Shown piece after piece: positions 6,655 to 30,627 of a stretch of DNA of 64,000 nt. The notes beneath the pieces were generated by a model. It did not search any database. It had not been told where the DNA came from and was given only the letters and a program-made list of their open reading frames with translations. A program made the translations under genes and the position numbers. Position 1 is the first letter of the stretch; every line of letters begins with the position of its first letter. Source of the stretch: Bradymonadia bacterium (GTDB lineage Bacteria; Myxococcota_A; Bradymonadia; UBA7976; UBA1532); contig JBMOFP010000002.1 of assembly GCA_049318805.1 (NCBI GenBank), positions 9,273 to 73,272 of the forward strand, given 5' to 3'.

Positions 6655-8931
<2,277 letters not shown>

Positions 8932-8941
8932 GGAGCAGAGC

Positions 8942-9781
8942 ATGAACGATTGGCTGGCGAGTCACGGCAAACGCCCGTTCGCCGAATACCCTGCGCGCCA
9001 CTTCCAGTGGCAGGTGGACGCGGGCGTCGCGACGCTCACGTTGAGCCGCCCCGAGCGCAAGAACCCATTGACCTTCGACGCCTACGCGGAGCTCCGGGAC
9101 TTGTTCGTCGCGCTCGAGTTCGCGAGCGACGTCCACGTGGTCGTGCTCGCCGGGGCCGGGGGCAACTTCTGCTCGGGTGGAGACGTGCACGAGATCATCG
9201 GTCCGTTGACGCGGATGGCGATGCCCGAGTTGCTCACGTTCACGCGCATGACCGGCGCGCTCGTGCGCTCGATACGCAAGTGTCCGCAGCCGATCGTGGC
9301 CTCGGTGGACGGCATCTGCGTCGGCGCCGGCGCGATTCTGGCGATGGCCTCGGACCTGCGCTTGTGCACGCCCCGAACGAAGACGGCTTTCCTCTTCAAC
9401 AAGGTCGGGCTGGCCGGGTGTGACATGGGCGCGTGCGCGATCCTCCCGCGCATCATCGGCCAGGGCCGGGCGAGCGAGCTGCTGTACACCGGTCGTGTGA
9501 TGACCGCGGCCGAGGGCCTCGCGTGGGGCTTCTACAACAGCGAACACGCCCCGGAAGGGGTGCTCGAGGCCGCTCAGGCGCTGGCCCGCAGCCTCGCGAG
9601 CGGCCCGACCTTCGCCCACGCCATGACCAAACGGCAGCTCCACGCGGAGTGGAACGTCTCGGTCGACGAGGCCATCGAGGCGGAGGCCGAGGCGCAGGCG
9701 ATCTGCATGCAGACCCAGGACTTCCGGCGCGCGTACGAGGCCTTCGTCCGCAAAGAGACCCCCGTCTTCGAGGGCAACTGA
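8942..9781 (+). CDS. enoyl-CoA hydratase/isomerase (crotonase family)
   Basis: Crotonase fold motifs ([42 protein letters not shown]). GAGGAG RBS before ATG 8942. Confidence 0.8.
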
Positions 9782-9782
9782 G

Positions 9783-10976
9783 GTGCGTCTTCGCCCGGCG
9801 CTCGACCTGCCCTTTTTCGAGGACCACCACCGCGCGCTCTTCGAGTCGGCCGACCGTGCCGCGGAGCGACTCGTGGCCGAGGCGGGGCCTCACGACGGCG
9901 AAGACGTGGACGCTGCGTGTAGAGGCTACGTGCGCGCACTCGGGGACGCCGGGCTGCTCCGCCACGTGGTCGAGGCGGAGGACGGCGGGGCGTCGACGCG
10001 CCTCGAGTCTCGCGCGCTGTGCCTCCTGCGCGCGTGTCTCGCGCGGCACGACGCCTTGCTGGACTTCGCGTTCGCGATGCAGGGCCTCGGTACGGGCGCG
10101 CTCACGCTGGGGGGCACGGCCGAGCAGCGCGCGCGGTGGCTGCCGAAGGTCGCCGAGGGGCGCGCCATTGCCGCCTTTGCGCTCTCGGAGCCGCACGCGG
10201 GCTCGGATGTGTCGGCGATGACCACCTCGGCCCGGCCCGATGCCCACGGCTGGGTCCTCGACGGCCGCAAGACGTGGATCTCGAACGGCGGCATCGCGGA
10301 CTTCTACACGGTCTTCGCACGGACCTCCGAGGCTACGGGGTCACGGGGCATCGGCGCCTTCATCGTGCCGGCCGACGCGCCCGGGCTCGTCGTCGAGGAG
10401 CGGATCGAGGTCGTCGCCCCGCACCCGCTCGCGACCCTACGATTCGACGCGTGCAGGGTGCCCGCCGACGCGCTGATTGGAGCGCCGGACGGCGGCTTCA
10501 AGCTCGCCATGCGGACCCTGGACATCTTTCGCCCTTCCGTGGGCGCCGCCGCGTTGGGCATGGCGCGTCGCGCGCTCGAGGAGGCCCTCGCGCACACCGA
10601 GACACGCACGCTCTTCGGCCAGCGGCTGGGGGACTTTCAGCTCACGCAGGCGCGCCTCGCCGACATGGCCGCGGCGCTCGAGGCCGGGGAGCTCCTCACG
10701 TGGCGCGCCGCCTGGCTGCGGGATGTCCGCGGCGTGCGAACGACACGCGAGGCGGCGATCTCGAAGATGGTGGCCACGGAGTCGGCCCAGACCATCGTCG
10801 ATTCGGCCGTGCAGTTGTTGGGCGGGCTCGGCGTGCGCCGCGGGCAGGTGGTCGAGCGCCTCTATCGGGAGGTACGCGCGCTGCGCATCTACGAGGGCGC
10901 GACCGAGGTCCAGAAGCTGATCATCGCACGGGCGCTGCGCGCCGAGGCCGCGCTGCCCGAAGGAGACGCACCGTGA
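9783..10976 (+). CDS. acyl-CoA dehydrogenase
   Basis: ACAD N-terminal, middle and C-terminal domain motifs ([33 protein letters not shown]). Confidence 0.8.
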
Positions 10977-12580
10977 GCACGACAGGTCACGTCGACACCT
11001 TCGCGGCCGACAACTTGCCGGACCGCGCCCTTTGGCCGGTCCTCGAGCTGACCGGATTCGAGTACCCCGAGCGCTTGAACTGCGCGGAGGTGCTGCTCTC
11101 CGAGGCCCTGGCGCGGGGCGACGCCGACCGAACCGCCGTGGAGTCCGCGACGGAGCGTTGGACCTACGGAGAGCTGGCGGAGCGCGTGAATCGGTGGGCC
11201 CACGTGCTCGTCCACGACCTCGGTCTGGTCCCAGGGAACCGGGTCTTGCTCCGGGGCCCGAACACGCCGATGATGGCCGCGGCCTGGCTCGCCGTGGTCA
11301 AGGCGGGTGGCATCGCCGTGGCCACCATGCCGCTGCTCCGTGCGAAGGAGCTCGGCGAGATCGTGGAGAAAGCGCAGGTCTCTCATGCGCTGTGCGATGC
11401 ACGCTTGCTCGACGAGCTCGCGGCCACGCAGGCGGCGTTTCCGGTCCTTCGGGTCGTGGCCACCTTCGGCGACGCCGGCCATCCCGACGCGGTGGAGCCT
11501 CGGATGGCGGCGGCGCCGACCGACTTCGTCGCGTGTCCCACGGCCGCCGAGGACACCTGCCTCATCGCGTTCACCTCGGGCACGACCGGACAGCCGAAGG
11601 GCACCATGCACTTCCATCGGGACGTCCTCGCGATTTGCGACGCCTTCCCAGTTTCGTGCCTGCGCGCGACCCGCGACGACCGATTCATCGGCAGCCCGCC
11701 GTTGGCGTTCACCTTCGGCCTGGGGGGTCTGCTGCTCTTCCCGATGCGGATCGGCGCGGCGGCCGTGCTCATCGAGCGTCCCGCGCCCGACCTGCTGCTG
11801 GACGCCATCGAGCGACATGGCGCGACCGTGTGTGTGACCTCACCCACGGCCTATCGCGCCATGGCGGCGCGGGTCTCGGGGCGCGCCCTCGGGCACCTGC
11901 GGAAGTGTGTCAGCGCGGGCGAAGCGCTGCCGGCCCCGACGCGCGACCTCTGGCGCGCGGCGACCGGCCTCGAGATCATCGACGGCATCGGGTCCACGGA
12001 GCTGCTCCACATCTTCATCTCGCACACCGAGGACACCGTGCGTCTCGGTGCGACCGGGCGCGCGATCCCCGGTTACTCCGCGTGCATCCTCGATGAGAAC
12101 GGCGCGAGGTTGCCGCCGGGGCAGGTCGGTCGGCTCGCGGTGCGCGGACCCACGGGGTGTCGTTACCTGGCCGACGAGCGCCAGCGGGCCTACGTCGTCG
12201 ACGGCTGGAACCTCACGGGCGACGCGTACGTCGAGGACGAAGACGGCTACTTCCACTACCAGGCCCGTACGGACGACCTGATCATCTCCGCGGGCTACAA
12301 CATCGCCGGTCCCGAGGTCGAGGTCGCGCTCCTTGCGCATCCGGCCGTGGCGGAGTGCGGCGTCGTCGGTGTCCCGGACGAAGAGCGCGGGCACCTCGTC
12401 AAGGCCTTCGTCGTGCTGCGCGAAGGCCACGAGGCCGGCTCCGAGACCGCCGCGGCGCTCCAGGACTTCGTCAAGGGCGCCATCGCGCCGTACAAGTATC
12501 CGCGGGCGATCGAGTTCGTCTCGCAGCTCCCGCGGACCGAGACGGGTAAGCTTCAGCGGTTCCGACTTCGAGGAGGGTGA
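10973..12580 (+). CDS. aromatic acid-CoA ligase (benzoate/2-aminobenzoate-CoA ligase family, AMP-forming)
   Basis: GTG 10973 overlaps the upstream stop (GTGA). AMP-binding motif [11 protein letters not shown] and the [26 protein letters not shown] motif. The first 318 residues of ORF 10019..12580 are an alternate-frame artefact. Confidence 0.75.
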
Positions 12581-12583
12581 GGC

Positions 12584-13000
12584 GTGTTCCTGTGTCACAA
12601 ACGGGTGCGATTCGCGCACTGCGATCCCGCCGGGATCATCTTCTACCCGCAGTACCTGATGCTCGCCCACGAGGTGAAAGAAGACTGGCTGCGGGAGGGC
12701 CTCGGCTATCCGCTCGAGCAGTCCCTCTTGACCGACCGCAAGGGCCTCCCGGTCGTTCGTCTCGAGGTGGACTTCAGCGCGCCGAGTCGCTTTGGAGAGG
12801 AGCTGCTCTTTCAGCTCGAGGTGGTGAAGGTCGGGCGCACCTCCGTCGACACCCTCTACTCGGTCTTCTGTGGCGAGGAGCTGCGCTGTCGTATCCGGTC
12901 CGTCGACGTCCGCACGGACCTGGAGACGGGTCAATCGGTCGAGTGGGAGCCCGAGCTCAGGGAGAAGCTCCTGACCTTCTACGTCGAGCCCGACGCATGA
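12584..13000 (+). CDS. acyl-CoA thioesterase, 4HBT/YbgC hotdog family
   Basis: VRFAHCDPAGIIFYPQY motif with the catalytic Asp of 4-hydroxybenzoyl-CoA thioesterase-like proteins. GTG start 4 nt after the ligase stop. Confidence 0.7.
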   Translation: MFLCHKRVRFAHCDPAGIIFYPQYLMLAHEVKEDWLREGLGYPLEQSLLTDRKGLPVVRLEVDFSAPSRFGEELLFQLEVVKVGRTSVDTLYSVFCGEELRCRIRSVDVRTDLETGQSVEWEPELREKLLTFYVEPDA

Positions 13001-13389
13001 GCCGTGTGTTGCAGCCCCCCACCTGGGCCCGTCCGCGGGGCTACGCCAATGGGGTCGAGGCCTCTGGGCGCCTCGTTTTTGTCGCCGGTCAGATCGGCTG
13101 GAACGGGCAGGGGGTCTTCGAGTCGGACGACCTCGTCGCGCAGACACGACAGGCCCTCGAGAACGTCGTCGCGGTCCTCGCCGAGGCCAACGCCGGGCCG
13201 GAGCACCTCGTGCGCATGACCTGGTACCTGGTCGACAAACAGGCCTACAAGGCGCGGTCGGCGGAGCTCGGGCAGGTCTATCGCGCGGTGCTCGGGCGAA
13301 ACTTTCCCACGATGACCGCCGTCCAGGTGGTGGCGCTGATCGAGGACCGGGCGCTGGTCGAGATCGAATGCACGGCCGTCGTGCCGTGA
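12997..13389 (+). CDS. RidA/YjgF-family enamine/imine deaminase
   Basis: ATGA overlap with the thioesterase stop. YjgF motifs (RPRGYANGVEASGRLVFVAGQIG, AVQVVALIEDRALVEIE). Confidence 0.7.
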   Translation: MSRVLQPPTWARPRGYANGVEASGRLVFVAGQIGWNGQGVFESDDLVAQTRQALENVVAVLAEANAGPEHLVRMTWYLVDKQAYKARSAELGQVYRAVLGRNFPTMTAVQVVALIEDRALVEIECTAVVP

Positions 13390-13416
13390 CCTGAACGCAA
13401 CGGAACGAGAGGCGCG

Positions 13417-14601
13417 ATGGAATCCCCCCGTAAGTCCCCCAAATTCGACTGGCAGGACCCGCTCGACCTCGAGGGTCAGTTGACCGAGGACGAGCGCATG
13501 GTGCGCGACTCCGCGCGTGCCTACGCCCGTGACCGGCTCATGACGCGGGTCCAGCGCTCCTTCCGGACGGAGACCACCGACCCCGAGATCTTTCGCGAGA
13601 TGGGGGCCCTCGGCCTGCTCGGTCTCACGATCGAAGGCTACGGCTGTGCGGGCCTGGGCTACGTGGCCTACGGTCTCGTCGCCCGGGAGATCGAGCGGGT
13701 CGACTCCGGCTATCGCTCGATGATGAGCGTGCAGTCGTCCCTCGTCATGCATCCGATTCACGCCTTCGGCACCGAGGCCCAGCGCGCGCGGTGGCTCCCG
13801 GGCCTCGCCACGGGCGCGCTCATCGGGTGTTTCGGTCTCACCGAGCCGAACCACGGCTCTGACCCCGGCGGCATGGAGACGCGCGCGCTCGCGGTCGACG
13901 GCGGCTATCGCCTCAGCGGCACGAAGCGGTGGATCACGAACTCACCGATCGCGGACGTCTTCGTGGTCTGGGCGAAGACCGCGGACGACGTCATTCGGGG
14001 CTTCGTGCTCGAGAAGGGCATGGCGGGTCTGTCGGCGCCGAAGATCGAGGGCAAGTTCAGCCTGCGCACCTCGATTACGGGCGACATCGTGCTCGACGAC
14101 GTCTTTGTGCCGGCGGAGAACCTCCTGCCGGGCGTGCAGGGTCTGAAGGGCCCCTTCTCGTGCCTGAACAGCGCCCGCTACGGCATCGCCTGGGGCGCGC
14201 TCGGGGCCGCGGAGTTCTGCTGGCACGCGGCGCGGGACTACGCGCTCGAGCGCAAGCAGTTCGGGCGGCCGCTCGCCGCCAACCAGCTCGTGCAGAAGAA
14301 GCTCGCCGACATGCAGACGGAGATCGTGCTCGGGCTTCTGGGATGTCTGCGCCTCGGTCGCATGAAAGAGGCAGGCACCGCGGCGCCGGAGATCACCTCG
14401 ATTCTCAAGCGCAACTCCTGCGGCAAGGCGCTCGACGTGGCGCGAGCCGCCCGCGACATCCACGGCGGCAACGGGATCGTCGACGACTACCACGTCATCC
14501 GACACGTGATGAACCTCGAGACCGTGAACACCTACGAGGGCACTCACGACATCCACGCGCTCATCCTCGGTCGCGCCCAGACCGGCATCAGCGCCTTCTG
14601 A
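13417..14601 (+). CDS. gcdH: glutaryl-CoA dehydrogenase
   Basis: ACAD family with a GcdH-like N-terminus ([17 protein letters not shown]) and [19 protein letters not shown] motifs. Confidence 0.75.
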
Positions 14602-14620: not shown

Positions 14621-15457
14621 TCAGAGTCGGGTGCGCAGGTCCCAAAGCTCCGGGAAAAGTCGTACCTCGAGCATGCCGCGCAGGTACGAGACGCCCGAGG
14701 TGCCCCCGGTGCCCCGCTTGAAGCCGATGACCCGTTCCACCGTCGTGACGTGGCGAAATCGCCATTGGCGAATCGTGTCCTCGACGTCGACGAGCTTCTC
14801 GGCCAGCTCGTAGAGGTCGAAGTACCGTTCGGTGTTGCGGTAGACCTCGGACCAGGCCGCCTCGACGGAGGGGTGCGCGACGTAGGGTTGCCTGAAGTCG
14901 CGATTCACGACCTCGGCGTCCACGGGAAGCCCGCGTCGCGCGAGCACCCGGATCGCCTCATCGTAGAAGCTCGGCGCCTCGAGGAGCGCGTCGAGCCAAG
15001 CGGCGAGGTCGGGCCGATGTCGGTGCGGCTCGATCATCGCCGCGCTCTTGTTGCCCAGCAGGAACTCCAACCCCCGGTACTGGTAGGACTGGAAGCCCGA
15101 GGAGTGCCCGAGCGACGCGCGGAACTGCGTGTACTCGCTGGGCGTCAGCGTCGACAGCACGTTCCACGCCTGTATCAACTGCTCCATGATCGCGCCGACC
15201 CGGGCGAGCATCTTGAACGCCGGGCCGAGCTCATCGGCCTGGAGCTTCGCGCGGGCCGCGAAGAGCTCGTGGAGCACGAGCTTCATCCAGAGCTCGGTCG
15301 TCTGGTGCTGCACGATGAAGAGCATCTCGTCGTGGCAGGTCGAGCGGGGATGCTGCGCGTCGAGCAGCCCATCGAGCGACAGGTAGTCGCCGTAGCTCAT
15401 CTTCCCGGTGAAATCGACGTGGGCTCCACTCGGCCCTGAGGGTGCGTCGGATGCCAT
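14621..15457 (-). CDS. kynA: tryptophan 2,3-dioxygenase
   Basis: 278 aa with bacterial TDO signature ([41 protein letters not shown]). Confidence 0.85.
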
Positions 15458-15476: not shown

Positions 15477-17393
15477 TTACGTCACACGCGCGCGACGCTG
15501 GAAGGCGGGGTCTCGCCAGGTCTCGCGCTCGAGGACGTCGCGCAGAGCCTCGACGGCGTCCCACACGTCTCGAAACGAGAGGTACAGCGGCGCGAAGCCG
15601 AAACGAAGGATGTCGGGCGCGCGAAAGTCGCCGATCACGCCACGGGCGATCAGCGCCTGCATGACGGGCCACGCGTTCGGGTGGCGCAGGCAGACCTGAC
15701 TCCCGCGCTCGTTCGGCGCACGGGGTGTGACCACCTCGAGACCGTGGCCCGCGCACCGCTGCTCGACCCAGTCGATGAAGTGGCCCGTCAGTGCCACAGA
15801 CTTCGCCCGCAGGGCCTCCATGGGGGCCGCCAGCACCGTCTCGACGCCCACCTGGAGCGCGGCGAGAGAGAGCACCGGCGGGGTCCCGCAAAGCAGCCGC
15901 TCGATGCCGGGGGCGGGCGCATACTCGGGTGTGAAGTCGAAGGGCGCTGCGTGCCCCATCCAGCCCGCCAGCGGCGAGCTGAAGGCCGCCTGGTGACGCG
16001 CGGCGACGAAGGCGAACGCGGGCGCGCCCGGGCCGCCGTTGAGGTACTTGTAGCCGCACCCGACGGCGAAGTCGGCCCCGGCGGCGTTCAAGTCGACGGG
16101 CACGGCGCCTGCGCTGTGGGCCAGGTCCCAGACGACCAGGGCGCCGTGGGCGTGGGCCGCCGCCGTGAGCCGGGCCAGGTCGTGCATCGCCCCGGTCCGA
16201 TAGTTCACGTGCGTCAGCATCAGGACGGCCACGTCCGAGTCCAGCGCCGCCTCGGGGTCGTCCACCGCGTCGACGACATGGCTCCGGGCGAGCAAGTCGC
16301 GCAGCCCCTGGGCGACGTAGAGGTCCGTGGGGAAGTTGCTGCGCTCGCTCACGATGCGTCGACGGTCGCCGCGCATCGCCAACGCCGCGGAGAGGACCTT
16401 GAAGAGGTTCACCGAGGTGCTGTCCGCGACGATGACCTCGCCGGGCGCTGCGCCGACCAGCCGCGCGATCTGGTCGCCGACGCGCCGCGGCAGGTCGATC
16501 CACCCGGCTGTGTTCCAGCTTCGAATGAGGTCCTGGCCCCATTCGCGCTCGATGACCGCGCGCAAGCGCGCCGGCGTGGCGCGCGGCAAGGGGCCCAGCG
16601 AGTTGCCGTCCAGGTACACGACGCCGGGGGGCAGGTCGAAGGCGTCTCGGTGGACCGCGAGCGGGTCCGCGCGGTCCAGGTCCGCGGGTGTCCTTCGCGA
16701 GGGCTTCTCGACCTGGTCGGCGCGGGACAACGGCCCACGGAGGACCGCCCGCACGGGGGCGGCGTCGCAGTCTTCGACCTTGAGCGGCAAGGCGATCAGC
16801 TCGTAGTCGCCTTCAGGCACCGCGTCGAGCACGAGGTTCTCGAGGATGCCCATGCCGTGGCGCGCGATGGCGGCATGGGCGTCCATGGTCTTTGAACTCT
16901 CGGGATCGAGCGAGGGGGTGTCGATGCCGATGAGCTCGACCCCATGCGCCGCCAGGAGGTCGATGACCTCGGGGTGGACCGCCGTGAAGTCGCTCGCCCA
17001 GCGCTCTACGGCCGCCTTCGCCTGCGTTCTCAGCAGGACCCGGGGCGGACACCCTTCGAGGTGCGCGGCGAGCGCCGAGGCGTCGACCCGCCCGACGGCG
17101 TCGAGAACGTGCACGACCCGACACGGGCCGAGGTAGCGCTCCAGCGCGAGGCCGCCGACCGTCGCGCCGTCGCGCCGATAGTGGGCCGGCGCGTCCGCGT
17201 GGGTGCCCGCGTGGGAGGAGAGCACGAGGCGCGATACGTTGACCGGGCAGTCCTCGGACAGGACCCAGATCCGTCGTTCGTCGAAGTCGGTGTCGCCGGG
17301 CCAGGTGGGCATACCCACACGGAGCGGCGCCGAGATGTCCCAGAGGCGCATGTGGTCGAGCATCGCGCACGCGATGCGCCACCGCAAACTCAA
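15477..17393 (-). CDS. kynBU: fused kynurenine formamidase (cyclase family, N-terminal) and kynureninase (PLP-dependent, C-terminal)
   Basis: N-terminal 210 aa has [39 protein letters not shown] as in KynB. Residues from about 250 onward have [17 protein letters not shown] and the PLP-lysine region [11 protein letters not shown] as in KynU. One 638-aa frame with no internal stop. Confidence 0.75.
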
Positions 17394-17728
17394 CCGGTGA
17401 GGGTCGCCTCGAGGCTGTTCGGCGTCAGCGTGGGGTCGAGCCGGCGCACACTCGTGGCGTCCGATCGACTCTCGGGGTGCACGTCGTAGATACGACAGGC
17501 CGACCCTCGAAGGCGCGCCGACATCACGAAGTCGTCGACGCTCATCTCGTCGACCGTCTCACAGAAGACGACGGCGTCGATGGGGGCGCCGTCGAGCGCT
17601 TCAAGACAGTGCAGGGGAGTCCCTGCGTCGACCGGGCTGACGCAGCGCATCATGCCGAGCCGGTGCACCCACTCGGCGCGCTCACTCGCACTCGAACCCG
17701 TCACGAGCAGTCGTATCGCGGTCTTCAT
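17390..17728 (-). CDS. hypothetical protein (possible degenerate receiver-like fold)
   Basis: 112-aa ORF whose stop overlaps the kynBU start. No clear motif. Confidence 0.3.
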
Positions 17729-17781: not shown

Positions 17782-18843
17782 TCAGCGGCTACCCACCCAG
17801 GGGATCGTGAACGCGCCGCGCTCAGGCCCTGCGCCGACGACCGAGAAGCAGACCCGGTCACCCGCCCGGACAGTCTCAGACGCGACGTCGTCGGAGAGCA
17901 GGCAGAGCGTGCTGGCCGTGACGACGTTCCCGATGCGCTGTGCGTGGGTGGGCGCGAACTCGGGCCCCAGCCCCATCGTCTGGAGCGTCTTCGCGACCAG
18001 GCCGGGGCTCGCCTGGTGGGTGTACAGACGTCGGAACGTGCGCGTCAGCTCGGGCTCGGTCTCGAGCAGCGCTTGATGGTTCAGGCGCATGCCCTCGGTG
18101 TAGTACTTCAGCACCGCGTCGCCATCCATGGAGAACGCCGCCAGAGTCGTCGCGCTCGGTGTGCCCGGCGGGTGCTCGGCGCCGCCCCCGCGGAACTCGA
18201 CGAGCGGGTTGTCGAAGCCCGGTTCGTCGCCAAAGCTGTGGGTGTCTCGGGCGTAGAGCCAGTGGCCGGTCGTGTCGTCGGTTCGCTCGAGCACGACCGC
18301 GGCGGCGGCGTCCGAGAACAGCGCGGGCGAGTACCACAGCGTCTTGCCGCGCGGGTGCATGGGGTTGTCCCGGTAGATCTCGTTCGGTCCGCCGAGGTGG
18401 TCCAACATGTACCGGCTGGTGGCGTTGAAGGCCACGACCAGGGTCCGACGTGCGTTCGAACGCGCCGCGGTGGCGAACGTCCGCGCAAGGCCCCCGCATC
18501 CCGCCTGCAGCAGCGTGCTCGGCACGTCGTCGGGCAGACCGAGCCCGCGCGCGACCTCGAAGGCGTCTTGATTGAGGTGCAGCTGGAACGGCGTGCACGT
18601 GACCACGACGCAGGCGTCGACGTCGTCCGGGCCGAGACCGGCCGCCTCGAGCGCGCGCCGACCCACGTCGATGGCGGGTTCGAGTGAGCTGAAGCGGGTG
18701 GGGGACCACGCCTTCGATTGAATGCCGAGTCGCGTCGCGACCGCGTTGCCATCCAGGTACATGCCGGGCTTGCCGCGGTCCGGGATACACGCCCACTCCG
18801 CCCACGTACCGATGGGGATGATCTGACCGAGCTCGCTCGCCAC
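17782..18843 (-). CDS. 3-oxoacyl-ACP synthase III family (FabH/PqsD/OleA-like) condensing enzyme
   Basis: GTG start (VASELGQII). Cys-His-Asn triad context LLQAGCGGL, LYTHQAS, IGNVVTAST. Has an insertion relative to housekeeping FabH (HPRGKTLWYSP). Confidence 0.7.
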   Translation of the reverse strand: MASELGQIIPIGTWAEWACIPDRGKPGMYLDGNAVATRLGIQSKAWSPTRFSSLEPAIDVGRRALEAAGLGPDDVDACVVVTCTPFQLHLNQDAFEVARGLGLPDDVPSTLLQAGCGGLARTFATAARSNARRTLVVAFNATSRYMLDHLGGPNEIYRDNPMHPRGKTLWYSPALFSDAAAAVVLERTDDTTGHWLYARDTHSFGDEPGFDNPLVEFRGGGAEHPPGTPSATTLAAFSMDGDAVLKYYTEGMRLNHQALLETEPELTRTFRRLYTHQASPGLVAKTLQTMGLGPEFAPTHAQRIGNVVTASTLCLLSDDVASETVRAGDRVCFSVVGAGPERGAFTIPWVGSR

Positions 18844-18969
18844 TGCGCGAAGAACGAGTGAATGAGGCTTCAGACTTGGACCCCTCGGCCGTGCGCTCCC
18901 CCGAGCACCCGCGGCGAAGTCATCATCCGCCGACCCCTCAGGCAACGCGCAGCGGTCGGAAGAGTCCCT

Positions 18970-19812
18970 ATGAATTCAGGTTCTTCCCGTGATTGCCGGT
19001 GTCCTGACCCGATGGGTGAAGCCGTTCAGCACAACCCGGCGTGGATCGTCGGGGACGAGCCGGTCGGTCGAGTCGCGCTGTGCTCGATGTTGGCGGCGTC
19101 CGGCTTTGGACCGGTGAAGGTCGTGGAGTCCTCCGCGACCCTCGATCCAGCACAGCTTGGGCCGGGCGTGATCGTCGTCGTGGACCTGGAGTCGACGTTC
19201 CTTTTGGACCCCGTCGAGATGACCGCGATCTGGGGGACTCTTCGGGGGGCGCGCGCACGAAACTGCCTGGTCGTGGGCGTCGGCTTGGAACCGGCGTCGC
19301 TCCCCAGTGAGTTCATGTTCCTGCCGAAGCCGACTCGAGTGACGGCCTTCACGGCGCTCCGTGCCCGCCTCGTGGAGCGGCTCGGACCGGCGGTCGTCAC
19401 GCCGGCCGGAGGCCGCGCGTCCGCAGAGCCCGACGTGCTCGAGCTCGCCAAGCTCGTCGAGATGTACGGGAGCGACCCGGAAGACCTGCGATGCATGCTC
19501 GAGGAGTACCGAGACCACGGGCACCGCCTGCACCAGGACTATCGCGCCGCGCTCCGCGCGTGGGCCGCCAGCGACGAGCCCGAAAGTCGGCAGACGCTCC
19601 AGCGCTGCGCGCATCGACTCTGCGGGAGCGCGGGGGCCGTGGGGGCGACCCGCGTCTGCCACGCCACCCAGACTCTGATGCACCTCTCGGCGACGACACC
19701 GGGGGGCACCTTCGGCGACGCGGCCCGTGTCGTCGAAGCCCTGCTCGGGCGACTCGAGGTGGAGATCGACACACGCTTGCGTGCTGGGTCCGCCTCGTCG
19801 GTGGCGTCGTGA
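18970..19812 (+). CDS. receiver-like plus Hpt phosphotransfer domain protein
   Basis: N-terminal CheY-like segment (WIVGDEPV, VIVVVDLES). C-terminal Hpt helix with AHRLCGSAGAVGA matching the HxxKG-type motif. Start could also be 19012. Confidence 0.5.
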   Translation: MNSGSSRDCRCPDPMGEAVQHNPAWIVGDEPVGRVALCSMLAASGFGPVKVVESSATLDPAQLGPGVIVVVDLESTFLLDPVEMTAIWGTLRGARARNCLVVGVGLEPASLPSEFMFLPKPTRVTAFTALRARLVERLGPAVVTPAGGRASAEPDVLELAKLVEMYGSDPEDLRCMLEEYRDHGHRLHQDYRAALRAWAASDEPESRQTLQRCAHRLCGSAGAVGATRVCHATQTLMHLSATTPGGTFGDAARVVEALLGRLEVEIDTRLRAGSASSVAS

Positions 19813-22190
19813 CCGAAGGGCCGTCCGCCGGCTTTCTGTTCGGGGTCGGGCGCGTTCTCCTCGTCACCGGTGTGGTGTTCAGCTTCTTCTACGCGTGGGT
19901 GAACGCGGCGCCCGCGGCCGCGGCCTGCGCGGCCGCGACGACGGTGTGTGGCTGGATCCTTTGGCGCTTACGCCGCGGAGACTCCGCCCAGACGACCGCG
20001 CAGCGCTACCTCGGGACCTTCTACTTCGCGTTGACCACCGTGGCCTTTGCGACGGGCGGTCACCGCGCCCCGGTCGGCGTCTGGCTGAGCCTCGTCCCGT
20101 TGGTCGCGGTGTCGGTGTCCGGCCTGCGCTCGGCGCAGCGTTGGGGCTGGATCGTCGCCGCGACGATGACGGTGCTCTTTGTCCTCGACCGCGTGGGGAT
20201 CGACGGCTCTCACCCCGGCACGATCATCTTGCCTCGACTCGAGCAGTCCGTCGAGGCCTGGGTCCTGTGGGTGGGCAACGTCGGGCTCGTGCTGGTCGCG
20301 GTGGTCGTCGTGGGTCGGTATGAGCGGGCGATGCGGGACTTGCTCGCGCGCCTGGAGCAAAGCCGCGAGGCGTTGTCCATCGCCCGCGACCAGGCCGAGG
20401 CGGCGAGCCGCGCCAAGAGCACATTTCTCGCGAACGTCAGTCACGAGGTTCGAACGCCGCTCAACGGCATCATCGGGCTGTCCGAGGTCCTCCGGGAGAG
20501 CGAGGCGGAGCCCGACCGGCGTCAGCAGCTGGACGTCGTTCGAAACTCCGCGCGGTCGCTCCTCGCGGTGCTGAACGATGTTTTGGACTTCTCGAAGATC
20601 GAGTCCGGTGCACTGGCGCTCGAGAGCCTGCCCTTTGTGCCCGGCGACGTCGTCGACGAGGTCGTCGAGCTCTTCGGGCCACCGGCCGAGAGCCGCGGTC
20701 TCCTTCTGGCGGCCCACATCGAGGACCGGACGCTGGTCCAGGGCGATCCCGTTCGCTTCCGCCAGATCGTCTCGAACCTGGTCGGCAACGCGGTGAAGTT
20801 CACGACGGCCGGGTGGGTTCACGTCCGTTTGCGGTCCTCGGAGACGGCCCAGGGGCGGTGCATCGTGCTCGAGGTCGAGGACTCGGGGATCGGCATCTCC
20901 GAGGACCAACTCGCGCGGGTCTTCAGCCCCTTCGCCCAGGCGGACGTCGCCACGACCCGACGGTTCGGAGGGACCGGCCTCGGGCTCTCGATCGTGCAGC
21001 AACTGTGCGGTGCGATGGGGGGGCGAATCGACGTCCAGAGCGCCATCGGCCACGGGACGAGCTTCCGACTGGTGTTCCCGTGGAGGGTCCCGTCGACGTC
21101 GCCGCGTCCCATCGAGACCGGGCTGGAGGGACGCGCGTTCGCGGTCGTGCTCCCCGAGTCCCCGGTGCGCGACACGCTGTGTGAGAACCTGTGGCGCGCC
21201 GGGGCCGCTTCGGTCTCCATCTGGCCCGACCTCGAGTCCTTTGCGACCGCGCGAGAGGACTTCATCGCCACCGGAGCGCCCCCGATCGAGGAGATCGTGC
21301 TCACCTCGAGCCGACGCGCGTTGGCCCTGGAGCAACCGATGGCCGCCCGGTGGATCTCGGTGTGTGGCGCCCATCCCGCCGCCGGACGCGGTGCGCCCGT
21401 CGCCCACGTATCGTCGTGGGTCCGGGGCGCGCGCTTCGTGCGCCGCATCGTCGGCGCGCTCGAACCGGACGCCCTGATCACCCCGACGCTCTCCGAGCCG
21501 ATTCTGGCGAACGCCACCCCAGACAACGACGTCGGCGAGGGCCTGTCGGTGCTGGTGGCTGAGGACAATCCCGTCAACCAGCAGGTCATCGCGCGCATGC
21601 TTCGACGACTCGGCGCGACGGCGGACTTCGTGGAGAACGGACGCCTCGCCGTCGAGGCCGTGCAACGACGCACCTACGACGTCGTCCTCATGGACGGTCA
21701 GATGCCCGTGCTCGATGGTGAGGACGCCACCCGAGAGATTCGCAACCTGCCCGGGCCAGCGGGTCGGGTCACGGTGGTCGCCGTCACGGCCCACACGCTG
21801 CAAGGGGACCAGAGTCGCTGCTTCGCCGCCGGCATGGACGACCACGTGCCCAAGCCCCTCACGCTGGACGCGCTGCGCGTGACGCTGGAGCGCGTTCGGG
21901 CGCGCCGTGACCTTGCCGAAGACGCCCGGGCCGAGTTCGCCGGCGTGCTCGCCGCCGTTCTGCCGACGATGCGGCAGGGGTCCAGCGAGCTGGTGCGCGC
22001 GACGGACCTGAGCCTCGAGGCCCGCGAGTCCAGGTTGCGGCTGGCGGTCCGCCGGCTCGCCGCGGGCGCGGCGTGGTCCGGCGACGCCGAGCTGGAGCGG
22101 GCCTGCAGACGCGCGCTCGCCGAGCCCCGGATTCGGGTCGCCGACCTCGCCACCCTGGGCTTGTTGCCCGTGCGCGAACGCGCAGCCTGA
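19809..22190 (+). CDS. hybrid sensor histidine kinase (TM sensor, HisKA, HATPase_c, receiver)
   Basis: GTG 19809 overlaps the Hpt protein stop. About 6 predicted TM helices. H-box SHEVRTPLNGIIG, G-boxes GTGLGLSIVQ, receiver VLVAEDNPVNQ..VLMDGQMPVLDG. Confidence 0.8.
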   Translation: MTEGPSAGFLFGVGRVLLVTGVVFSFFYAWVNAAPAAAACAAATTVCGWILWRLRRGDSAQTTAQRYLGTFYFALTTVAFATGGHRAPVGVWLSLVPLVAVSVSGLRSAQRWGWIVAATMTVLFVLDRVGIDGSHPGTIILPRLEQSVEAWVLWVGNVGLVLVAVVVVGRYERAMRDLLARLEQSREALSIARDQAEAASRAKSTFLANVSHEVRTPLNGIIGLSEVLRESEAEPDRRQQLDVVRNSARSLLAVLNDVLDFSKIESGALALESLPFVPGDVVDEVVELFGPPAESRGLLLAAHIEDRTLVQGDPVRFRQIVSNLVGNAVKFTTAGWVHVRLRSSETAQGRCIVLEVEDSGIGISEDQLARVFSPFAQADVATTRRFGGTGLGLSIVQQLCGAMGGRIDVQSAIGHGTSFRLVFPWRVPSTSPRPIETGLEGRAFAVVLPESPVRDTLCENLWRAGAASVSIWPDLESFATAREDFIATGAPPIEEIVLTSSRRALALEQPMAARWISVCGAHPAAGRGAPVAHVSSWVRGARFVRRIVGALEPDALITPTLSEPILANATPDNDVGEGLSVLVAEDNPVNQQVIARMLRRLGATADFVENGRLAVEAVQRRTYDVVLMDGQMPVLDGEDATREIRNLPGPAGRVTVVAVTAHTLQGDQSRCFAAGMDDHVPKPLTLDALRVTLERVRARRDLAEDARAEFAGVLAAVLPTMRQGSSELVRATDLSLEARESRLRLAVRRLAAGAAWSGDAELERACRRALAEPRIRVADLATLGLLPVRERAA

Positions 22191-22193
22191 AGC

Positions 22194-24158
22194 TCAGAGG
22201 CTACGGCCGAGCCGTTCCGCGTCCGCGACCGCCTCGAGGATCGTCGCCGGGTGCCGCGCGTCGCCCAGGAGCACGACGTGGCCGTCGGCGGCCAGCGCCG
22301 CCCAGTCGGTCGGCGCCCGAACGCCGACCGCCACCACCACATGGTCGACCGCGGGCAACGTCTCGGCGGGCCGCCCGCGCCGGTCGACGAGCTGGACGCC
22401 GTCCGGTCCGATTGAACCGAGCGTCCGGCTCGTGTGCACTGAGATGCCGGCCGCTTCGAGACGCGCCTGGAGCAGGGTGCGCACGCTGCTCGGCAATCCG
22501 AGACCCATCTTCGGTCGCTGCTCGACCAGGCTGACCCGGGTGATCGCGGCGCGTGCGCCGAGGGCATCGGCGACCTCGCAGCCCTCCGGCCCGCCCCCGA
22601 GCACGAGCACATGCCCCGAGAGGGCGTCGTTCCCCAGGGCGGCCTCCGGATGCGACACCGCGCCCGCGTGGTCCAGCCCGGGCACGTGCGGCGTCGGTGC
22701 GGGCACGGCGCCGATCGCGACGATGACCTGGTCGTAGCCGGCGGACCAGGCGGCGAAGTCCGCCGGGTGAAGCGGGCGCGAGGTCTCGAGCACTACGCCG
22801 GCGGATTCGGCGTCTCGCACGAGCCACGCCGCATACTCCGCGAAGGTCTCCTTCATCGGCGGCGCCGCGCTCGCCCAGACCTTGCCCCCCGCTCGCACGG
22901 AGGCTTCGGCCACCGTGACGTCATGGCCTCGCCGCGCCAGCCGAGTTGCGCAGGTCAGGCCCGCCGGGCCCCCGCCCACGACGAGCACACGCAGGCGCTT
23001 CGACACCGGCGCGTCCAGCTCGGCGACACGACCGACCTGCGGGTTGACGAGGCAGCGCACGCCGCCGACGGTCACGGACTCCGCGCATCGGTTGCACGCC
23101 ACGCAAGGCCGCACGGCCTCAGGCTGGCCCTCCAGAAGGTGACGCGGCAGATCGGGGTCGGCGATCAGCGCCCGGCCGAACGCGACCAGGTCCGCGTTGC
23201 CCTCGGCCAGCGCACGCTCCGCGACCTCGGGACGTCGAAACCGCCCGACGGCCACCACGGGCACACGCACGCCCCGCGCATGCAGGCCGTGTCGGACCTG
23301 CGCGGCCAGGTCGGCGTAGGTTGCCTCGGCCAGGTAGTACGAGGGCATGTTGTACCGGTAGCTCTCGTAGTTGCACGCGCTCACCGAGAGCGCGTCCGCG
23401 CCCGCGAGCACGAGGCGGTGCGCATACTCGAGGGCCAGGGGCACGGTGATGCCGCCTTCGACGCGTTCGTCGGCGCTGAGCCTGCACTGGAGCGGGAACG
23501 CCGGTCCCACGAGCGCACGGGCGCGGCGGACCACCTCCGTCGCGAAACGCACCCGCCCGTCCAGGTCTCCGCCCCAGCGATCGTCCCGGAAGTTCGAGTA
23601 GGGGCTCAAAAACTGGCACACGAGGTAACCGTGGGCCATGTGGAACTCGACCCCGTCGGCCCCGCTGTCTCGCGCACGCAAAGCGGCGGCGGCGAACGCC
23701 TCCAGCGCCTCCTCGACGTCGGCCTCGTCCATCGCACGGGGCGGGTCGCGCATCACGGGGCAAGGCACGGCGCTCGCCGACACCGGCTGCCCTCCGGCGA
23801 ACTGCGAGACCGTTTGGCGACCTGCGTGGGAGAGCTGCACGAACAGGCGTCCGCCCACCGCATGGACGGCGCTGGCCAGGCCGGCGAACGCCTCGGTGTG
23901 GCGGTCCGAGGTCAACGTCGCCATCCACGGGCTCAGCCGACCCCGCGGATGCACGGCGACGTTGCCCGTGATGACGAGACCCGCGCCCCCGGCCGCGCGG
24001 AGCGCATAGTGCGAGACCATCGCCGGTGTCGGGAGGCCCTCGGCGTCCGCGAGGGACGGATCCATGGCGGGCATGACGATGCGGTTCGGCAGGGTCAGTG
24101 GACCGACCTGGAGCGGCGAGAACAGGTGCGGCCATCGAACGCGGCCGAGCTCCGTCAA
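22194..24158 (-). CDS. 2,4-dienoyl-CoA reductase (FadH)-type flavoenzyme: OYE TIM barrel plus FAD/NAD(P) Rossmann domain; candidate enoyl/dienoyl reductase of the FAS-like operon
   Basis: N-terminus [24 protein letters not shown] aligns to the FadH N-terminus. [25 protein letters not shown] (OYE). CVACNRC 4Fe-4S-like Cys cluster. [14 protein letters not shown] site and second [12 protein letters not shown](P) site. TTG 24158 overlaps the fabG stop; ATG at MPAMD is an alternative start. The 921-aa track ORF upstream of this point is an artefact. Confidence 0.65.
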
Positions 24159-24886
24159 AGCGAGACTCCGCCGTCGACCGCGAGCACCTGCCCTGTGACG
24201 TAGGTGGCGTCGGGTCCGAGCAAAAACGCGACGACCCCGGCGACCTCGTCGGCCCGCCCGTAGCGCCGCATCGGGATCCCCGCGAGGATCTCCTTGCCCG
24301 CCGCCTCTCGCACTCGGGCGCTCATTTCGGTCTCGATGAGGCCGGGCGCGACGGCGTTGACGGTGATCTTCTTCGGTGCGAGCTCGACGGCGAGCGCGCG
24401 GGTCAGAGCCTCGAGACCGCCCTTGCTCGCGGCGTAGTTCGCCTGGCCCCGATTGGGCCGGCGCGCCGCGGTGCTGCTGACGTTCACGATCCGCCCCGAC
24501 CGTCGCATCAGCATGTGCCGCGCGGCCGCCCGACTCAGCCAGAAGGCGGCGTCGAGGTTCGTGCGCAGCGTCTGGTGCCACTCCTCGTCCGTCATGGTGA
24601 GGGCCAGGTTGTCGGCCGTGACCCCCGCGTTGTTCACCAGCGCGTCGATGCCGCCAAAGTGTGTCACACACGCCTCGACACAGGCCGCGGCTGCGGACGC
24701 GTCCGCGACGTCCGCGGCGTGGAGGGCCACGACCGCCCCGAGGGCCTCGCACGCTGCGCGGACCTCCTGGGCCTCGGCCTCGCGACTGCGGTAGACCAGC
24801 AGGAGCCGGGCGTCGGGCGTGCGCGCGAGGCGCTCGGCGATGGCGCGTCCGATGCCACGACTGGCGCCGGTGACGAGGGTGATCAT
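24155..24886 (-). CDS. fabG: 3-oxoacyl-ACP reductase
   Basis: SDR with [16 protein letters not shown], catalytic YAASKGG. 243 aa. Confidence 0.85.
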
Positions 24887-26139
24887 CGTTCAATCTCCAG
24901 GGCGAGCATCGCGGTTTGCCCTCCGAGGCCGGCGGCATGAACGATGCCCCGGCGGCCACTCACCTCTCGAGGGGTGCCTTTGACCAGGTCGAGGCCACGG
25001 CAAGGGGCATCGACTTCGTCCAGACCACCGACGGGCGGAATCCGCCCGGCGCGCATCCCGACCAGGAGCGCCGCGGTCGACAGCGCGCCGGCCGCGGCGA
25101 GGGCGTGTCCGAGCTGCCCCTTGTCGGCGGCGATCACGGGTGAGCGGCCCCCAAAGACACGGCCGAAGACCTCGGACTCCACCCGGTCGAAGAGCGGGTT
25201 CGCGTTCCCGTGGGCTTGCACCACGTCGACCGACTCCGGCGCCCAGTCGGCGACCTCGAGCGCGCGCCTCAGCGCGGCCTCGACCGCGGTCGGATCGGCG
25301 CCGCTCAAGCCCCTGAGACCGGTCGCGGTGCCATACCCGCAGACCCGCGCCAGCACACGGGCGCCGCGGCTCCGCGCGACCTCCTCGCGCTCGAGGACAA
25401 AAAAGGCGGCGCCCTCCCCGGGCACGAAGCCGTCGTGGCGCGCGTCGAAGGGGCGTGTGTGGCCGGCGTTGGACAGCACCCCGAGGCGTCCGAAGCCGGT
25501 GAAGTGCTCCGGATTGACGGCGCTGTCGGCGCCCCCGGCGATGAGCACGTCCGCGCGACCCTCGGCGAGGGCCCATGCGGCCTCGCCCAGCGCCTGAAGC
25601 GCGCCCACCCCCGTGTTGCAGTAGTTCTGGTTGATGCCGCGGGCGTCGTGCTGGGCGCTGGCGTACCCCAGCACGTTGTTGGACAAGCCCTTGAGGAGCC
25701 AAAGAGGGTTGACGATGGGCATGCCCTCCTGCGCGAAGCGGACGGGGTCCCAGCCGCCGTCCGCCCCGCGGCCCCGCTCGACGGCGGGCACCAGGTCGCC
25801 CAGCTCGCCGAAGGCGGTCCCCGCGCCGACAAAGAGGCCGAGTCGTTCCGGATCGACGCTCCCCGGGGGCAGCGCGGCGTCCTGGAGGGCGAGCTTGACC
25901 GCCGCGAGCCCGTAGAGCACGGCGGGGGTCATCAAACGCAGGTTCTTTCGGTTCTCCACCCACGCCTTCGGGTCGAAGTCGGGGACGGTGGCCGCCGCGG
26001 TGCACGGGAACGGCGAGGCCTCGAAACGCGTGACGGGACGTGCCGCGACCCGGCCCTCGAGGAGACCCGCGAGGAGCGTGTCGGCCGACTGGCCGAGTGG
26101 GCTCACGACTCCGAGACCCGTCAGCACGACGCCCTTCAT
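24883..26139 (-). CDS. beta-ketoacyl synthase family protein lacking the canonical active-site Cys (chain-length-factor/KS-beta-like)
   Basis: Starts [16 protein letters not shown] after GAGGAAAAACC. Segment [14 protein letters not shown] has Gly where FabF has Cys, with a Cys 3 residues upstream. His motifs retained ([20 protein letters not shown]). ATGA overlap with fabD. Confidence 0.7.
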
Positions 26140-27101
26140 GGTTTTTCCTCTGCCTGCGAAGGTGAATCGGAAGCGTCGAGCGCCCGGAGGAGTCCGTCGA
26201 GGTCGCTGGCCTCGTCGAAGCTCGCGACCTGCGCCCGGCGGGCGAGGCGCTTGACGTGGGTCAGGTTGCTTCGGCCCGGACCCAGGTGCCAGAAGCGGTC
26301 GATGCCGCGCTCGAGCATCTGCTCGAGGCTCTGGCGCCATCGCACCGCACCGACGACCTGGGCGACGAGTCGCGCGCGCACTGTGTCCGGTGCCGCGGCC
26401 ACGAGCCAGGCCGCGTCCACGTTGGCGACATAGTCCAGGGTGGCGGTGCGCATCTGGACCGCGCTCAGGGCGGCTTCCAGCTCGACGGCGGCCGGCGCGA
26501 GCATCCTCGAGTGGAACGGGGCCGACACCGCGAGCGGGGTGACGAGCGCGCCCTCGGCCTCCAGGCGCGCGCTCACGGTGTGGACCGTCGTCGCCTCTCC
26601 GCTGAGGACGACGAGACCCGGCGCGTTGTACGCGGCCACGTCGCAAACGCCGTCCGCAGCCGCGCACGCTGCTTCCACGACGGCCTCGTCGACGCGCTGA
26701 ACGGCGGCCATCGCGCCCACACCCTCCGCGACCGCCCGCTGCATCGCCTGCCCGCGCAAGCGGGTGAGTCGAACCGCGTCCGCCAGGTCGAGGACCTCGG
26801 CGGCCACCAACGCGCCGTACTCCCCCAGGGAGTGTCCGGCCACGACCGTGGGCCGGAAGCCGCGCGCCCGAAGGACCGCCCAGGCGGCGCAGGCCACGGT
26901 GAGCACGGCCGGCTGCGTGTTCTCCGTCTGCGTGAGCGTGCTCTCGGGGCCCTCGAAGATGAGCCGCGTCAGGTCGAAGCCCAGGGCGGCGTCGGCCGCT
27001 TCGAAGACGGCCCGGGCCTCGGGGAATCGGGCGTGGAGGACGCGGCCCATGCCCACGTACTGCGTTCCCTGGCCGGCGAAGAGCAGGGCCGTCGGCGTCA
27101 C
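26136..27101 (-). CDS. fabD: malonyl-CoA:ACP transacylase
   Basis: LLFAGQGTQYVGMG, GHSLGEY active-site Ser. GTG start overlapping the upstream stop. The first 69 residues of the track ORF are an artefact. Confidence 0.85.
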   Translation of the reverse strand: MTPTALLFAGQGTQYVGMGRVLHARFPEARAVFEAADAALGFDLTRLIFEGPESTLTQTENTQPAVLTVACAAWAVLRARGFRPTVVAGHSLGEYGALVAAEVLDLADAVRLTRLRGQAMQRAVAEGVGAMAAVQRVDEAVVEAACAAADGVCDVAAYNAPGLVVLSGEATTVHTVSARLEAEGALVTPLAVSAPFHSRMLAPAAVELEAALSAVQMRTATLDYVANVDAAWLVAAAPDTVRARLVAQVVGAVRWRQSLEQMLERGIDRFWHLGPGRSNLTHVKRLARRAQVASFDEASDLDGLLRALDASDSPSQAEEKP

Positions 27102-29350: not shown

Positions 29351-30627
29351 GCTTCCCAGCGACCGACGGCCAACGTCCCGTTGCTGCCGCCGAAGCCGAA
29401 CGCGTTGGTCAGCGCCAGACGTACGTCCACGGCGCGGGCCTCTCCGGGCACGTAGTCCAGGTCGCAGAGCGGGTCCGCATGTCGCAGATTCAGGGTCGGG
29501 GGCACGACGCCGTGCCGGATGGCCTGAATGCACGCGATGAGCTCGACCGCGCCGCACGCCGCGACGAGGTGACCCATCATGGACTTCGTCGACGAGACGG
29601 CGACCCGGTAGGCATGGTCGCCCAAGGCCCCCTTGATGCCCGCGGTCTCCGAGATGTCGTTCTGCTGGGTGCTGGTGCCGTGGGCGTTGATGTAGCTCAC
29701 GTCCTCCGGGCGCGCCCCGGCGTCCCACAGCGCCATCTGCATGGACTGGCGGGCTCCACGGCCGTCCGGGGGGCTGTCGGTGATGCGCCACGCGTTCGCG
29801 GAGCAGCCGTAACCCAGCAACTCCGCGTGGATGCGGGCGCCGCGGGCCAGGGCGTGCTCGAGGCGCTCGAGGACCACGAAGCCGGCCCCTTCACCCAAAA
29901 CGAAGCCATCGCGTGTCCGGTCGAACGGCCTCGAGGCGCCCGCGGGGTCGTCGTTGCGGGTCGAGAGCGCGCCGAGCAGGCCGAAGCCCGTCAGCATGAG
30001 CTCCTCGACGAGTCGGTCCGTGCCCCCGGCGAGCATGACGTCCGCATCCCCGCGTCGCAGCACGCGGAGCGCGTCGCCGATGGACTGCGCGCTGCTGGTG
30101 CACGCGGTGCTCGTCGTGAGGTTCGGGCCCGAGGCGCCGTGCAGGTGGGCGACCAGCGTCGCGGGGAAAAACGGCCCCATGACCAGGAAGTCCTTGGGGT
30201 CGACGGCGGAGTAAGCCTCGGCCGGGGTGCCGCGGGCGAAGTCGGCGAGGCGCTCGGACACGGTCTGGAGGTCGGGTCGAGAGGCCTCCGCACCTACGGA
30301 GACGCCGAAGCGGAGCGGGTTGAGGTCCCCGCGCGCAAGCCCGGCGTCCGCCATGGCTTCCGCGGCGGAGACCGCGGCGAGGGTCGACTTCGGATCGGAC
30401 CACCGCGCGTAGCGCCCCGGCAGCTCCAGGGTCGGCAGCGCGGCGACCTCGGCGGCGAAACGCGTGGGGAAACCCGAGGCGTCGAAACGTGTCACCGGAC
30501 CCACGGCGGACCGCCCCGCGACCAGGCCGGCCCAGGTGCTCTCGACCGTGCCCCCGAGCGGGGTGACGCAGCCCAGCCCGGTCACGACCACCCGTGCGCG
30601 ACCGTGTGCGTCGACCTGCCGACTCAT
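29347..30627 (-). CDS. fabF: beta-ketoacyl-ACP synthase II
   Basis: RVVVTGLGCVTPLG, active site TSTACTSS, NAHGTSTQQND, SMMGHLVAACG, NAFGFGGSN. ATG 30627 overlaps the fabZ-like stop. Confidence 0.8.
   Translation of the reverse strand: MSRQVDAHGRARVVVTGLGCVTPLGGTVESTWAGLVAGRSAVGPVTRFDASGFPTRFAAEVAALPTLELPGRYARWSDPKSTLAAVSAAEAMADAGLARGDLNPLRFGVSVGAEASRPDLQTVSERLADFARGTPAEAYSAVDPKDFLVMGPFFPATLVAHLHGASGPNLTTSTACTSSAQSIGDALRVLRRGDADVMLAGGTDRLVEELMLTGFGLLGALSTRNDDPAGASRPFDRTRDGFVLGEGAGFVVLERLEHALARGARIHAELLGYGCSANAWRITDSPPDGRGARQSMQMALWDAGARPEDVSYINAHGTSTQQNDISETAGIKGALGDHAYRVAVSSTKSMMGHLVAACGAVELIACIQAIRHGVVPPTLNLRHADPLCDLDYVPGEARAVDVRLALTNAFGFGGSNGTLAVGRWEA

Follow-up and report, generated by a model that had tools for sequence, protein, structure and literature searches.

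Do kynurenine formamidase (KynB) and kynureninase (KynU), two consecutive enzymes of tryptophan catabolism, ever occur as one polypeptide chain? The question is raised by a single minus-strand reading frame in a 64,000-nucleotide stretch of DNA from a Bradymonadia bacterium (assembly GCA_049318805.1, contig JBMOFP010000002.1, positions 9,273 to 73,272; the whole stretch is called the window below), which an initial annotation had read as a fusion of the two. We find that this frame very probably encodes a genuine bifunctional KynB–KynU enzyme, in which two domains with predicted formamidase and kynureninase activities are tethered by a flexible linker of about 18–20 residues, and which would have arisen when kynB lost its stop codon.

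The open reading frame (ORF) occupies positions 15477-17393 on the minus strand and runs uninterrupted, with zero stop codons or frameshifts, for 638 amino acids counted from its first TTG (17393). Residue numbers below follow this 638-residue ORF unless 628-residue numbering is stated. The true start is probably the ATG at 17363 (628 residues) or the ATG at 17351 (624 residues): the ortholog P0001 begins MLDPMRLWD, matching the former, and the ortholog P0002 begins MRIWD, matching the latter. Because the orthologs start at MLDxMRLWD or MRIWD, the initial 10–14 residues of the ORF are probably untranslated. With start sites taken from the orthologs, we place the fused kynB-kynU coding sequence at 15477..17363, its stop codon lying at 15477-15479. 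The 638-residue ORF has no exact match in the protein collection that was looked up, because public gene callers choose other start sites. Between the halves, at 16.6–16.8 kb, neither a stop codon nor a frameshift is present, here or in independent assemblies whose products are 91% (P0001) and 75% (P0002) identical to that of the window; the proposed single chain is thus continuous and recurs in relatives. A domain scan with profile hidden Markov models scores both halves above curated equivalog cutoffs (TIGR03035 and TIGR01814). It upholds the annotated order, with KynB at residues 16–219 and KynU C-terminal to it, and moves the start of KynU from about residue 250 to about residue 238.

The N-terminal domain (residues 16-219; positions 16737..17348, minus strand) is an arylformamidase of the cyclase fold. 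TIGR03035, the NCBIfam equivalog model for arylformamidase, matches the whole of this segment at 289 bits against a cutoff of 223, over profile positions 1-204 of 206, and Pfam Cyclase (PF04199) covers residues 19-164 (69.8 bits; cutoff 23.1). The closest solved structures are KynB from B. cenocepacia (4COG, E 5.6e-76) and P. aeruginosa (4COB, E 1.2e-67), and the B. anthracis enzyme (4CO9) was aligned as well. In the latter, the binuclear zinc site is built from His50, His54, Asp56, His161 and Glu173, with His60 holding the bridging hydroxide (PMC4243253). Column alignment to the three structures finds the metal-site residues H61, H65, D67, H71 (nt 17181-17213), H173 and E185 all present, and the tryptophan of the TWPGD motif is retained. 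The histidine motif on which the initial annotation had relied is located at residues 60-72. As in 4COG, one segment (residues 16-221) spans a whole bacterial KynB, keeping the HxGTHxDxPxH motif and the equivalents of His161 and Glu173, and this half is predicted to hydrolyse N-formyl-L-kynurenine. Free KynB differs in being a protein of 206–221 residues with its own stop codon and an obligate homodimer, each active site being completed by the other subunit (Diaz-Saez et al. 2014, PMC4243253); in the window the stop codon is gone and a kynureninase is joined C-terminally.

The C-terminal domain (residues 238-638; positions 15480..16682, minus strand) is a kynureninase dependent on pyridoxal 5′-phosphate (PLP). 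The NCBIfam equivalog model TIGR01814 matches residues 238-622 at 309 bits (cutoff 246) over profile positions 3-400 of 400, Pfam Aminotran_5 covers residues 305-543, and KYNU_C is complete (1-90 of 90) at residues 528-617 with 134 bits. These 401 residues align end to end with the Pseudomonas fluorescens kynureninase 1QZ9 (E 8e-148). The PLP-binding lysine, whose presence in this half was a point of concern, is K449 (nt 16047-16049), in the column of K227 of 1QZ9. Column by column, D423, Y448, R597, F354 and D357 correspond to Asp201, Tyr226, Arg375, Phe129 and Asp132, which together with Lys227 we take to be the cofactor- and substrate-binding residues and the Schiff-base lysine. W293, G503 and T504 are the equivalents of Trp64, Gly281 and Thr282, positions that presumably separate enzymes preferring kynurenine from those preferring 3-hydroxykynurenine, and by which the window enzyme would be of the bacterial, L-kynurenine-preferring type. 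From these matches, the KynU half is predicted to cleave L-kynurenine to anthranilate and L-alanine. Kynureninase is homodimeric when free, and the free enzyme stands alone at about 413–416 residues, whereas in the window its N terminus is covalently joined to KynB, the ancestral start codon having disappeared.

Between the domains lies a linker of 18 residues (220-237; positions 16683..16736, minus strand). GC content at third codon positions is uniform through the junction (0.89 in the linker; 0.90 and 0.92 in the domains). Relative to a related fused locus, L001, the ratio of non-synonymous to synonymous substitution rates (dN/dS) across residues 220-240 is about 1 (0.99), with the frame kept; in another, L004, the linker carries a one-codon indel. 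An AlphaFold2 monomer model built from a 44-sequence alignment has two well-folded domains and a mean predicted local distance difference test score (pLDDT) of 85.7, falling to 64 at the linker (residues 211-220 in 628-residue numbering), which is predicted to be flexible.

When the full-length protein was searched against 5.8 billion proteins, three more with both domains were found: P0001 (91% identity, 628 residues), P0002 (75%, 625 residues) and P0003 (56%). The remaining matches are stand-alone kynureninases of about 413 residues, at no more than 72% identity. The contigs of P0001 and P0002 come from different samples and pipelines and have the same neighbour genes as the window, and fused copies are found in ENA ERZ28593897, JGI 3300045443, ENA ERZ19525913 and Logan assemblies. 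Clusters at 90% identity hold at least six distinct variants of the 628-residue form (P0001) and at least five of the 625-residue form (P0002). At the codon level, dN/dS relative to L001 is 0.10 for the KynB half and 0.086 for the KynU half (dS about 0.5), and relative to L004 it is 0.28 and 0.18 (dS 0.75–1.0), values of 0.09–0.28 that indicate purifying selection on both halves. Constrained domains joined by such a linker are what one expects of a fusion that is translated and maintained and whose tether tolerates change, and this pattern is incompatible with a one-off assembly error.

How such a gene could have formed is suggested by its unfused relatives. Among the species-representative genomes of GTDB, a scan found 80 loci, in 67 of which kynU comes immediately after kynB, mostly in Burkholderiales and also in Rhodocyclales, Rhodospirillales and other groups. 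By frame-aware analysis kynB ends in a stop codon in all 67, as expected if the two are normally separate genes; kynU shares the kynB frame in 36 of them and is offset from it in 31. Seven loci had first been flagged as fused, but these were off-frame, stop-free runs arising from high GC content, and none of the 67 stood as a fusion on re-analysis. At the junctions the genes overlap as ATGA, abut as TGAATG or stand 3–12 nt apart (up to 44 nt among those listed), an arrangement classic for translational coupling. With the genes coupled in this way, a single stop-codon substitution or 1-nt indel would fuse them. The ancestor would have been an ordinary coupled kynB-kynU pair whose kynB stop codon was lost by a point substitution or 1-nt indel, leaving the old KynB C-terminal tail and the old KynU N-terminal leader as the linker. 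Set beside unfused junctions, the roughly 20 residues that separate VRAVLR from LDxADPLA in the fused protein match the former tail together with the former leader.

Gene order is shared with the unfused kynB-kynU-kynA operons (for example L029, L040 and L054), in which kynA follows directly and a divergent gene cluster for degradation of the coenzyme A (CoA) thioester of anthranilate adjoins in several loci. The window halves share 46–63% (KynB) and 56–68% (KynU) identity with the proteins of these operons; the difference from the Burkholderiales, Rhodocyclales and Rhodospirillales operons is the stop codon, which the window gene has lost. For the clade to which the window belongs, the nearest unfused enzymes are at 68–71% identity. 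The nearest relatives of both halves, at about 70%, are in Proteobacteria and some Chloroflexota, and Bradymonadia is a class of Myxococcota; these affinities are compatible with lateral acquisition of the locus.

The fusion appears to have formed more than once. P0003 is encoded at locus L003 on a Logan contig (SRR22388215_308018) and is a complete KynB–KynU fusion once its ORF is extended to the real start. It shares domain order, a single frame and complete domains with the window protein, and it differs in gene context and in retaining the ancestral kynU ATG inside the linker. Its halves are 76% (KynB) and 84% (KynU) identical to unfused Pseudomonas enzymes and only 57–59% identical to the window halves, and its surroundings, where genes for an OprD porin and a divergently oriented AsnC/Lrp regulator lie, are Pseudomonas-like. 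Since the L003 halves are nearest to Pseudomonas and the window halves to other unfused enzymes, two separate fusion events are indicated; by this comparison, cyclase-type KynB has been joined to KynU at least twice independently. L003 is seen on a single contig and may be an artefact.

A search of 1.84 billion cluster representatives with HMMER exposed further long kynureninases (P0124, P0128, P0184 and P0253). Two proteins, from Lentzea aerocolonigenes (P0124; WP_156094202.1, 687 residues) and a Kordiimonadaceae metagenome-assembled genome (MAG) (P0128/P0400; MBO6505820.1, 702 residues), carry an N-terminal alpha/beta-hydrolase before a kynureninase that passes TIGR01814. Their N-terminal domains belong to the HSL family (Abhydrolase_3/BD-FAE), and P0124 has an HGGYW motif, which we take to be typical of alpha/beta-hydrolase-type kynurenine formamidases. 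Like the window protein they place a hydrolase domain N-terminal to a full kynureninase, but the hydrolase fold is unrelated and has no homology to the window N-terminal half. They may be analogous, non-homologous formamidase–kynureninase fusions, the formamidase role being putative. Two other candidates were set aside. P0184, in which KynU precedes Cyclase, is probably a frameshift artefact, with a truncated KYNU_C and an Arg-rich garbled segment before kynB's own Met. P0253, a Cyclase–KynU protein at 39% identity, was left out of the count of KynB–KynU fusions because its cyclase does not come up to the arylformamidase model and its motif is altered to HGTGTHIEGLAH.

The neighbouring genes place the fused enzyme in a recognisable pathway. 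Nineteen nucleotides downstream and on the same strand lies kynA (14621..15457, minus strand), encoding tryptophan 2,3-dioxygenase (TIGR03036, 427 bits against a cutoff of 391; Pfam Trp_dioxygenase). The co-oriented, adjacent arrangement of kynB, kynU and kynA is therefore present in the window, and about 60 related loci likewise have kynA after kynU. No second kynB is present in the window. Divergent from kynA, a complete-looking plus-strand cluster (6655..14601) is assigned by family matches to aerobic anthranilate-CoA degradation. It comprises a bifunctional flavoenzyme of the salicylyl-CoA 5-hydroxylase/oxidoreductase family (6655-8931; NF006101, 1319 bits against a cutoff of 1078), an enoyl-CoA hydratase (8942-9781), an acyl-CoA dehydrogenase (9783-10976), an aryl-CoA ligase (10973-12580) for which the anthranilate-CoA ligase 4WV3 is the top match among solved structures (E 1e-82), a thioesterase (12584-13000), RidA (12997-13389) and a second acyl-CoA dehydrogenase (13417-14601). 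The same cluster stands beside unfused kynB-kynU-kynA in L029, L054, L057, L033 and L080, which include several Proteobacteria.

We take NF006101 to be the family of 2-aminobenzoyl-CoA monooxygenase/reductase, and the cluster presumably resembles the aerobic 2-aminobenzoyl-CoA pathway of Azoarcus evansii, with its 2-aminobenzoate-CoA ligase and 2-aminobenzoyl-CoA monooxygenase/reductase. Compared by family names, the two share an anthranilate-CoA-ligase-like enzyme, a bifunctional flavin adenine dinucleotide (FAD)-monooxygenase/old yellow enzyme (OYE)-type reductase (NF006101) and enzymes of beta-oxidation type; the likeness is one of gene context, outside the fused protein, and substrate specificity is predicted. 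In the proposed route, KynA would convert L-tryptophan to N-formylkynurenine and feed the fused enzyme, whose KynB domain, with a binuclear zinc site, would release L-kynurenine and formate and whose KynU domain would then yield anthranilate and L-alanine; the divergent cluster would most likely activate anthranilate to 2-aminobenzoyl-CoA and degrade it. Because kynA and the anthranilate-CoA cluster adjoin, and the cluster also flanks unfused kyn operons, the fused enzyme most likely performs the middle two steps of tryptophan-to-anthranilate catabolism and supplies CoA-dependent anthranilate degradation. Another linkage of kynureninase to anthranilate degradation is seen in Chloroflexota MAGs (L042-L044, L048, L051 and L058), where kynU has no kynB beside it and sits within the anthranilate-CoA cluster, the gene order being flavoenzyme, enoyl-CoA hydratase, acyl-CoA dehydrogenase, ligase, kynU, RidA.

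Upstream of the fused gene, on the same strand, are a gene resembling beta-ketoacyl-acyl carrier protein synthase III (KASIII/FabH-like; 17782-18945) and a 112-residue ORF with no family match in Pfam or NCBIfam (17390-17728). The gaps are 53 and 26 nt, both genes occupy the same position in L001 and L002 (83% and 93% identity), and both probably belong to a single operon with kynBU-kynA. As a PqsD-type anthraniloyl-CoA condensing enzyme of a quinolone route, the KASIII-like protein was considered and rejected, its similarity being generic to FabH (PqsD E 1.6e-4). Farther along, genes for a histidine phosphotransfer (Hpt)-domain protein and for a hybrid histidine kinase that carries a receiver domain (18862-22190, plus strand) separate the kyn operon from a cluster of fatty-acid or polyketide-like type, in which an acyltransferase gene accompanies three discrete ketosynthase genes (24883-30678, minus strand). 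The Hpt and hybrid-kinase arrangement is kept in L001 and L002. An OYE/FadH-type Fe–S flavoenzyme, within 22194-24959, adjoins the ketosynthase cluster; its ORF is over-extended at the 5′ end.

What else might the fused frame represent? That separate kynB and kynU genes were merged in the contig by a lost stop codon or an indel error is barely credible. Junction-spanning gene calls elsewhere in metagenomes are often visibly garbled or chimeric (P0271-P0278, P0184), those met in our junction-profile search were discarded as frameshift-garbled or chimeric artefacts, and unfused junctions, at 0–12 nt, are so narrow that a single error could merge the two genes; yet the fusion recurs across the independent assemblies, samples and pipelines given above, its copies diverge to dS 0.5–1.0 with an in-frame codon indel in the linker, and no garbled sequence lies on either side of the junction. 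It is also improbable that one ORF yields two proteins, through initiation of kynureninase at an internal TTG (Leu222) or post-translational cleavage of the linker. The NCBI record of the identical sequence (MFZ4734432.1, 'MAG: kynureninase [Bradymonadia bacterium]') does correspond to residues 222-638, a 417-residue kynureninase alone, starting at this TTG (16728-16730); a flexible linker could be accessible to proteases, and the L003 fusion keeps the ancestral kynU ATG within its ORF. Against this, the TTG is not conserved (CTG in L001, CTC in L004), no Shine–Dalgarno-like motif lies upstream of it and the linker has no other in-frame start, which argues that the 417-residue call is a start-site artefact hiding the KynB half. 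Gene callers at JGI and ENA predict the full product of 625–628 residues, and the KynB domain has no stop codon of its own, so that even with internal initiation it would only be made attached to KynU. Very improbable, too, is a repurposed or inactivated domain, for instance a KynB half that acts on another amide or is only structural or regulatory. The cyclase fold family does include isatin hydrolases and further hydrolases (PMC4243253), but the KynB half exceeds the arylformamidase equivalog cutoff, keeps all metal ligands and the TWPGD tryptophan, evolves at a dN/dS of 0.10 and sits in a standard kynB-kynU-kynA context with no other kynB in the window. Other points weigh against the bifunctional enzyme alongside the NCBI record. 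The census of fusions is incomplete: a library clustered at 50% identity buries the window clade inside stand-alone kynureninase clusters, and the HMMER search missed the clade, and is unusable as a census for it, because its representative is a stand-alone kynureninase. Searches with a junction-centred profile and with the KynB half did not return the known fusions P0001–P0003, although these are 75–91% identical for the query region; long targets are apparently lost with short queries, and fusion counts from partial-query searches are therefore unreliable. In the AlphaFold2 monomer the predicted template-modelling score (pTM) is 0.68, which leaves the orientation of the domains relative to each other, and with it their packing, undefined, and both KynB and KynU are homodimers when free, KynB needing the partner subunit for its active site.

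If the bifunctional enzyme is accepted, what does the fusion bring? What it guarantees is that the two activities are made in a 1:1 ratio and in the same place. That it brings nothing more, neither channelling nor any kinetic gain, the stop-codon loss having been fixed by drift and then retained solely because the two activities are both required, has in our estimate slightly less than an even chance. The ancestral pair was already stoichiometrically coupled through its ATGA or TGAATG junction, the linker evolves near-neutrally, the model suggests no fixed domain interface (its pTM being as given above), and the fusion is rare, seen in three or four lineages where stand-alone genes run to thousands, a scarcity that speaks against a strong advantage in general. 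Set against these are the survival of the fusion throughout a clade whose dS reaches about 1, at least two origins for cyclase-type KynB, and kynureninases with a different N-terminal hydrolase that hint at recurrent selection for coupling; none of the three is decisive. Rarity and a neutrally drifting linker fit a largely neutral origin, and a modest benefit would be compatible with the persistence and recurrence. The initial annotation had supposed that kynurenine is channelled directly. Bifunctional enzymes that channel substrate are exemplified by tryptophan synthase and dihydrofolate reductase–thymidylate synthase, and a kinetic benefit from proximity or channelling is a possible hypothesis here. 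A more elaborate version, in which formamidase–kynureninase coupling is under recurrent selection and the two homodimeric domains build a D2-like tetramer or a polymer that keeps free kynurenine low by proximity channelling, seems to us rather unlikely.

The locus encodes a real, conserved, rare and hitherto unannotated KynB–KynU fusion, in which familiar enzymes of a standard pathway take on a new architecture. Literature searches over 8 million papers found no description of it, matches to 'fusion' being reporter fusions or STRING figure legends, and no dedicated 'bifunctional' KynB–KynU model is among the NCBIfam matches. Both results are consistent with the earlier statement that this is not a described architecture, a negative that searches of this kind cannot prove. 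Both enzymes and the pathway are textbook, and the biology of tryptophan-to-anthranilate catabolism is unchanged. New are a natural, evolutionarily maintained single-chain KynB–KynU enzyme and a case of a coupled gene pair becoming a bifunctional gene by one stop-codon loss, with the unfused ancestral state surviving in relatives. As a naturally linked pair of obligate homodimers, the protein is a convenient system for testing the kinetic benefit of fusing consecutive enzymes, and interest would rise if channelling or an unusual assembly proved true. A compact enzyme leading from N-formylkynurenine to anthranilate could also interest those working on kynurenine-depleting enzymes and kynurenine biosensors, the advantage being hypothetical. 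For the Bradymonadia lineage itself, the annotation error means that pathway reconstruction would wrongly report kynB as missing.

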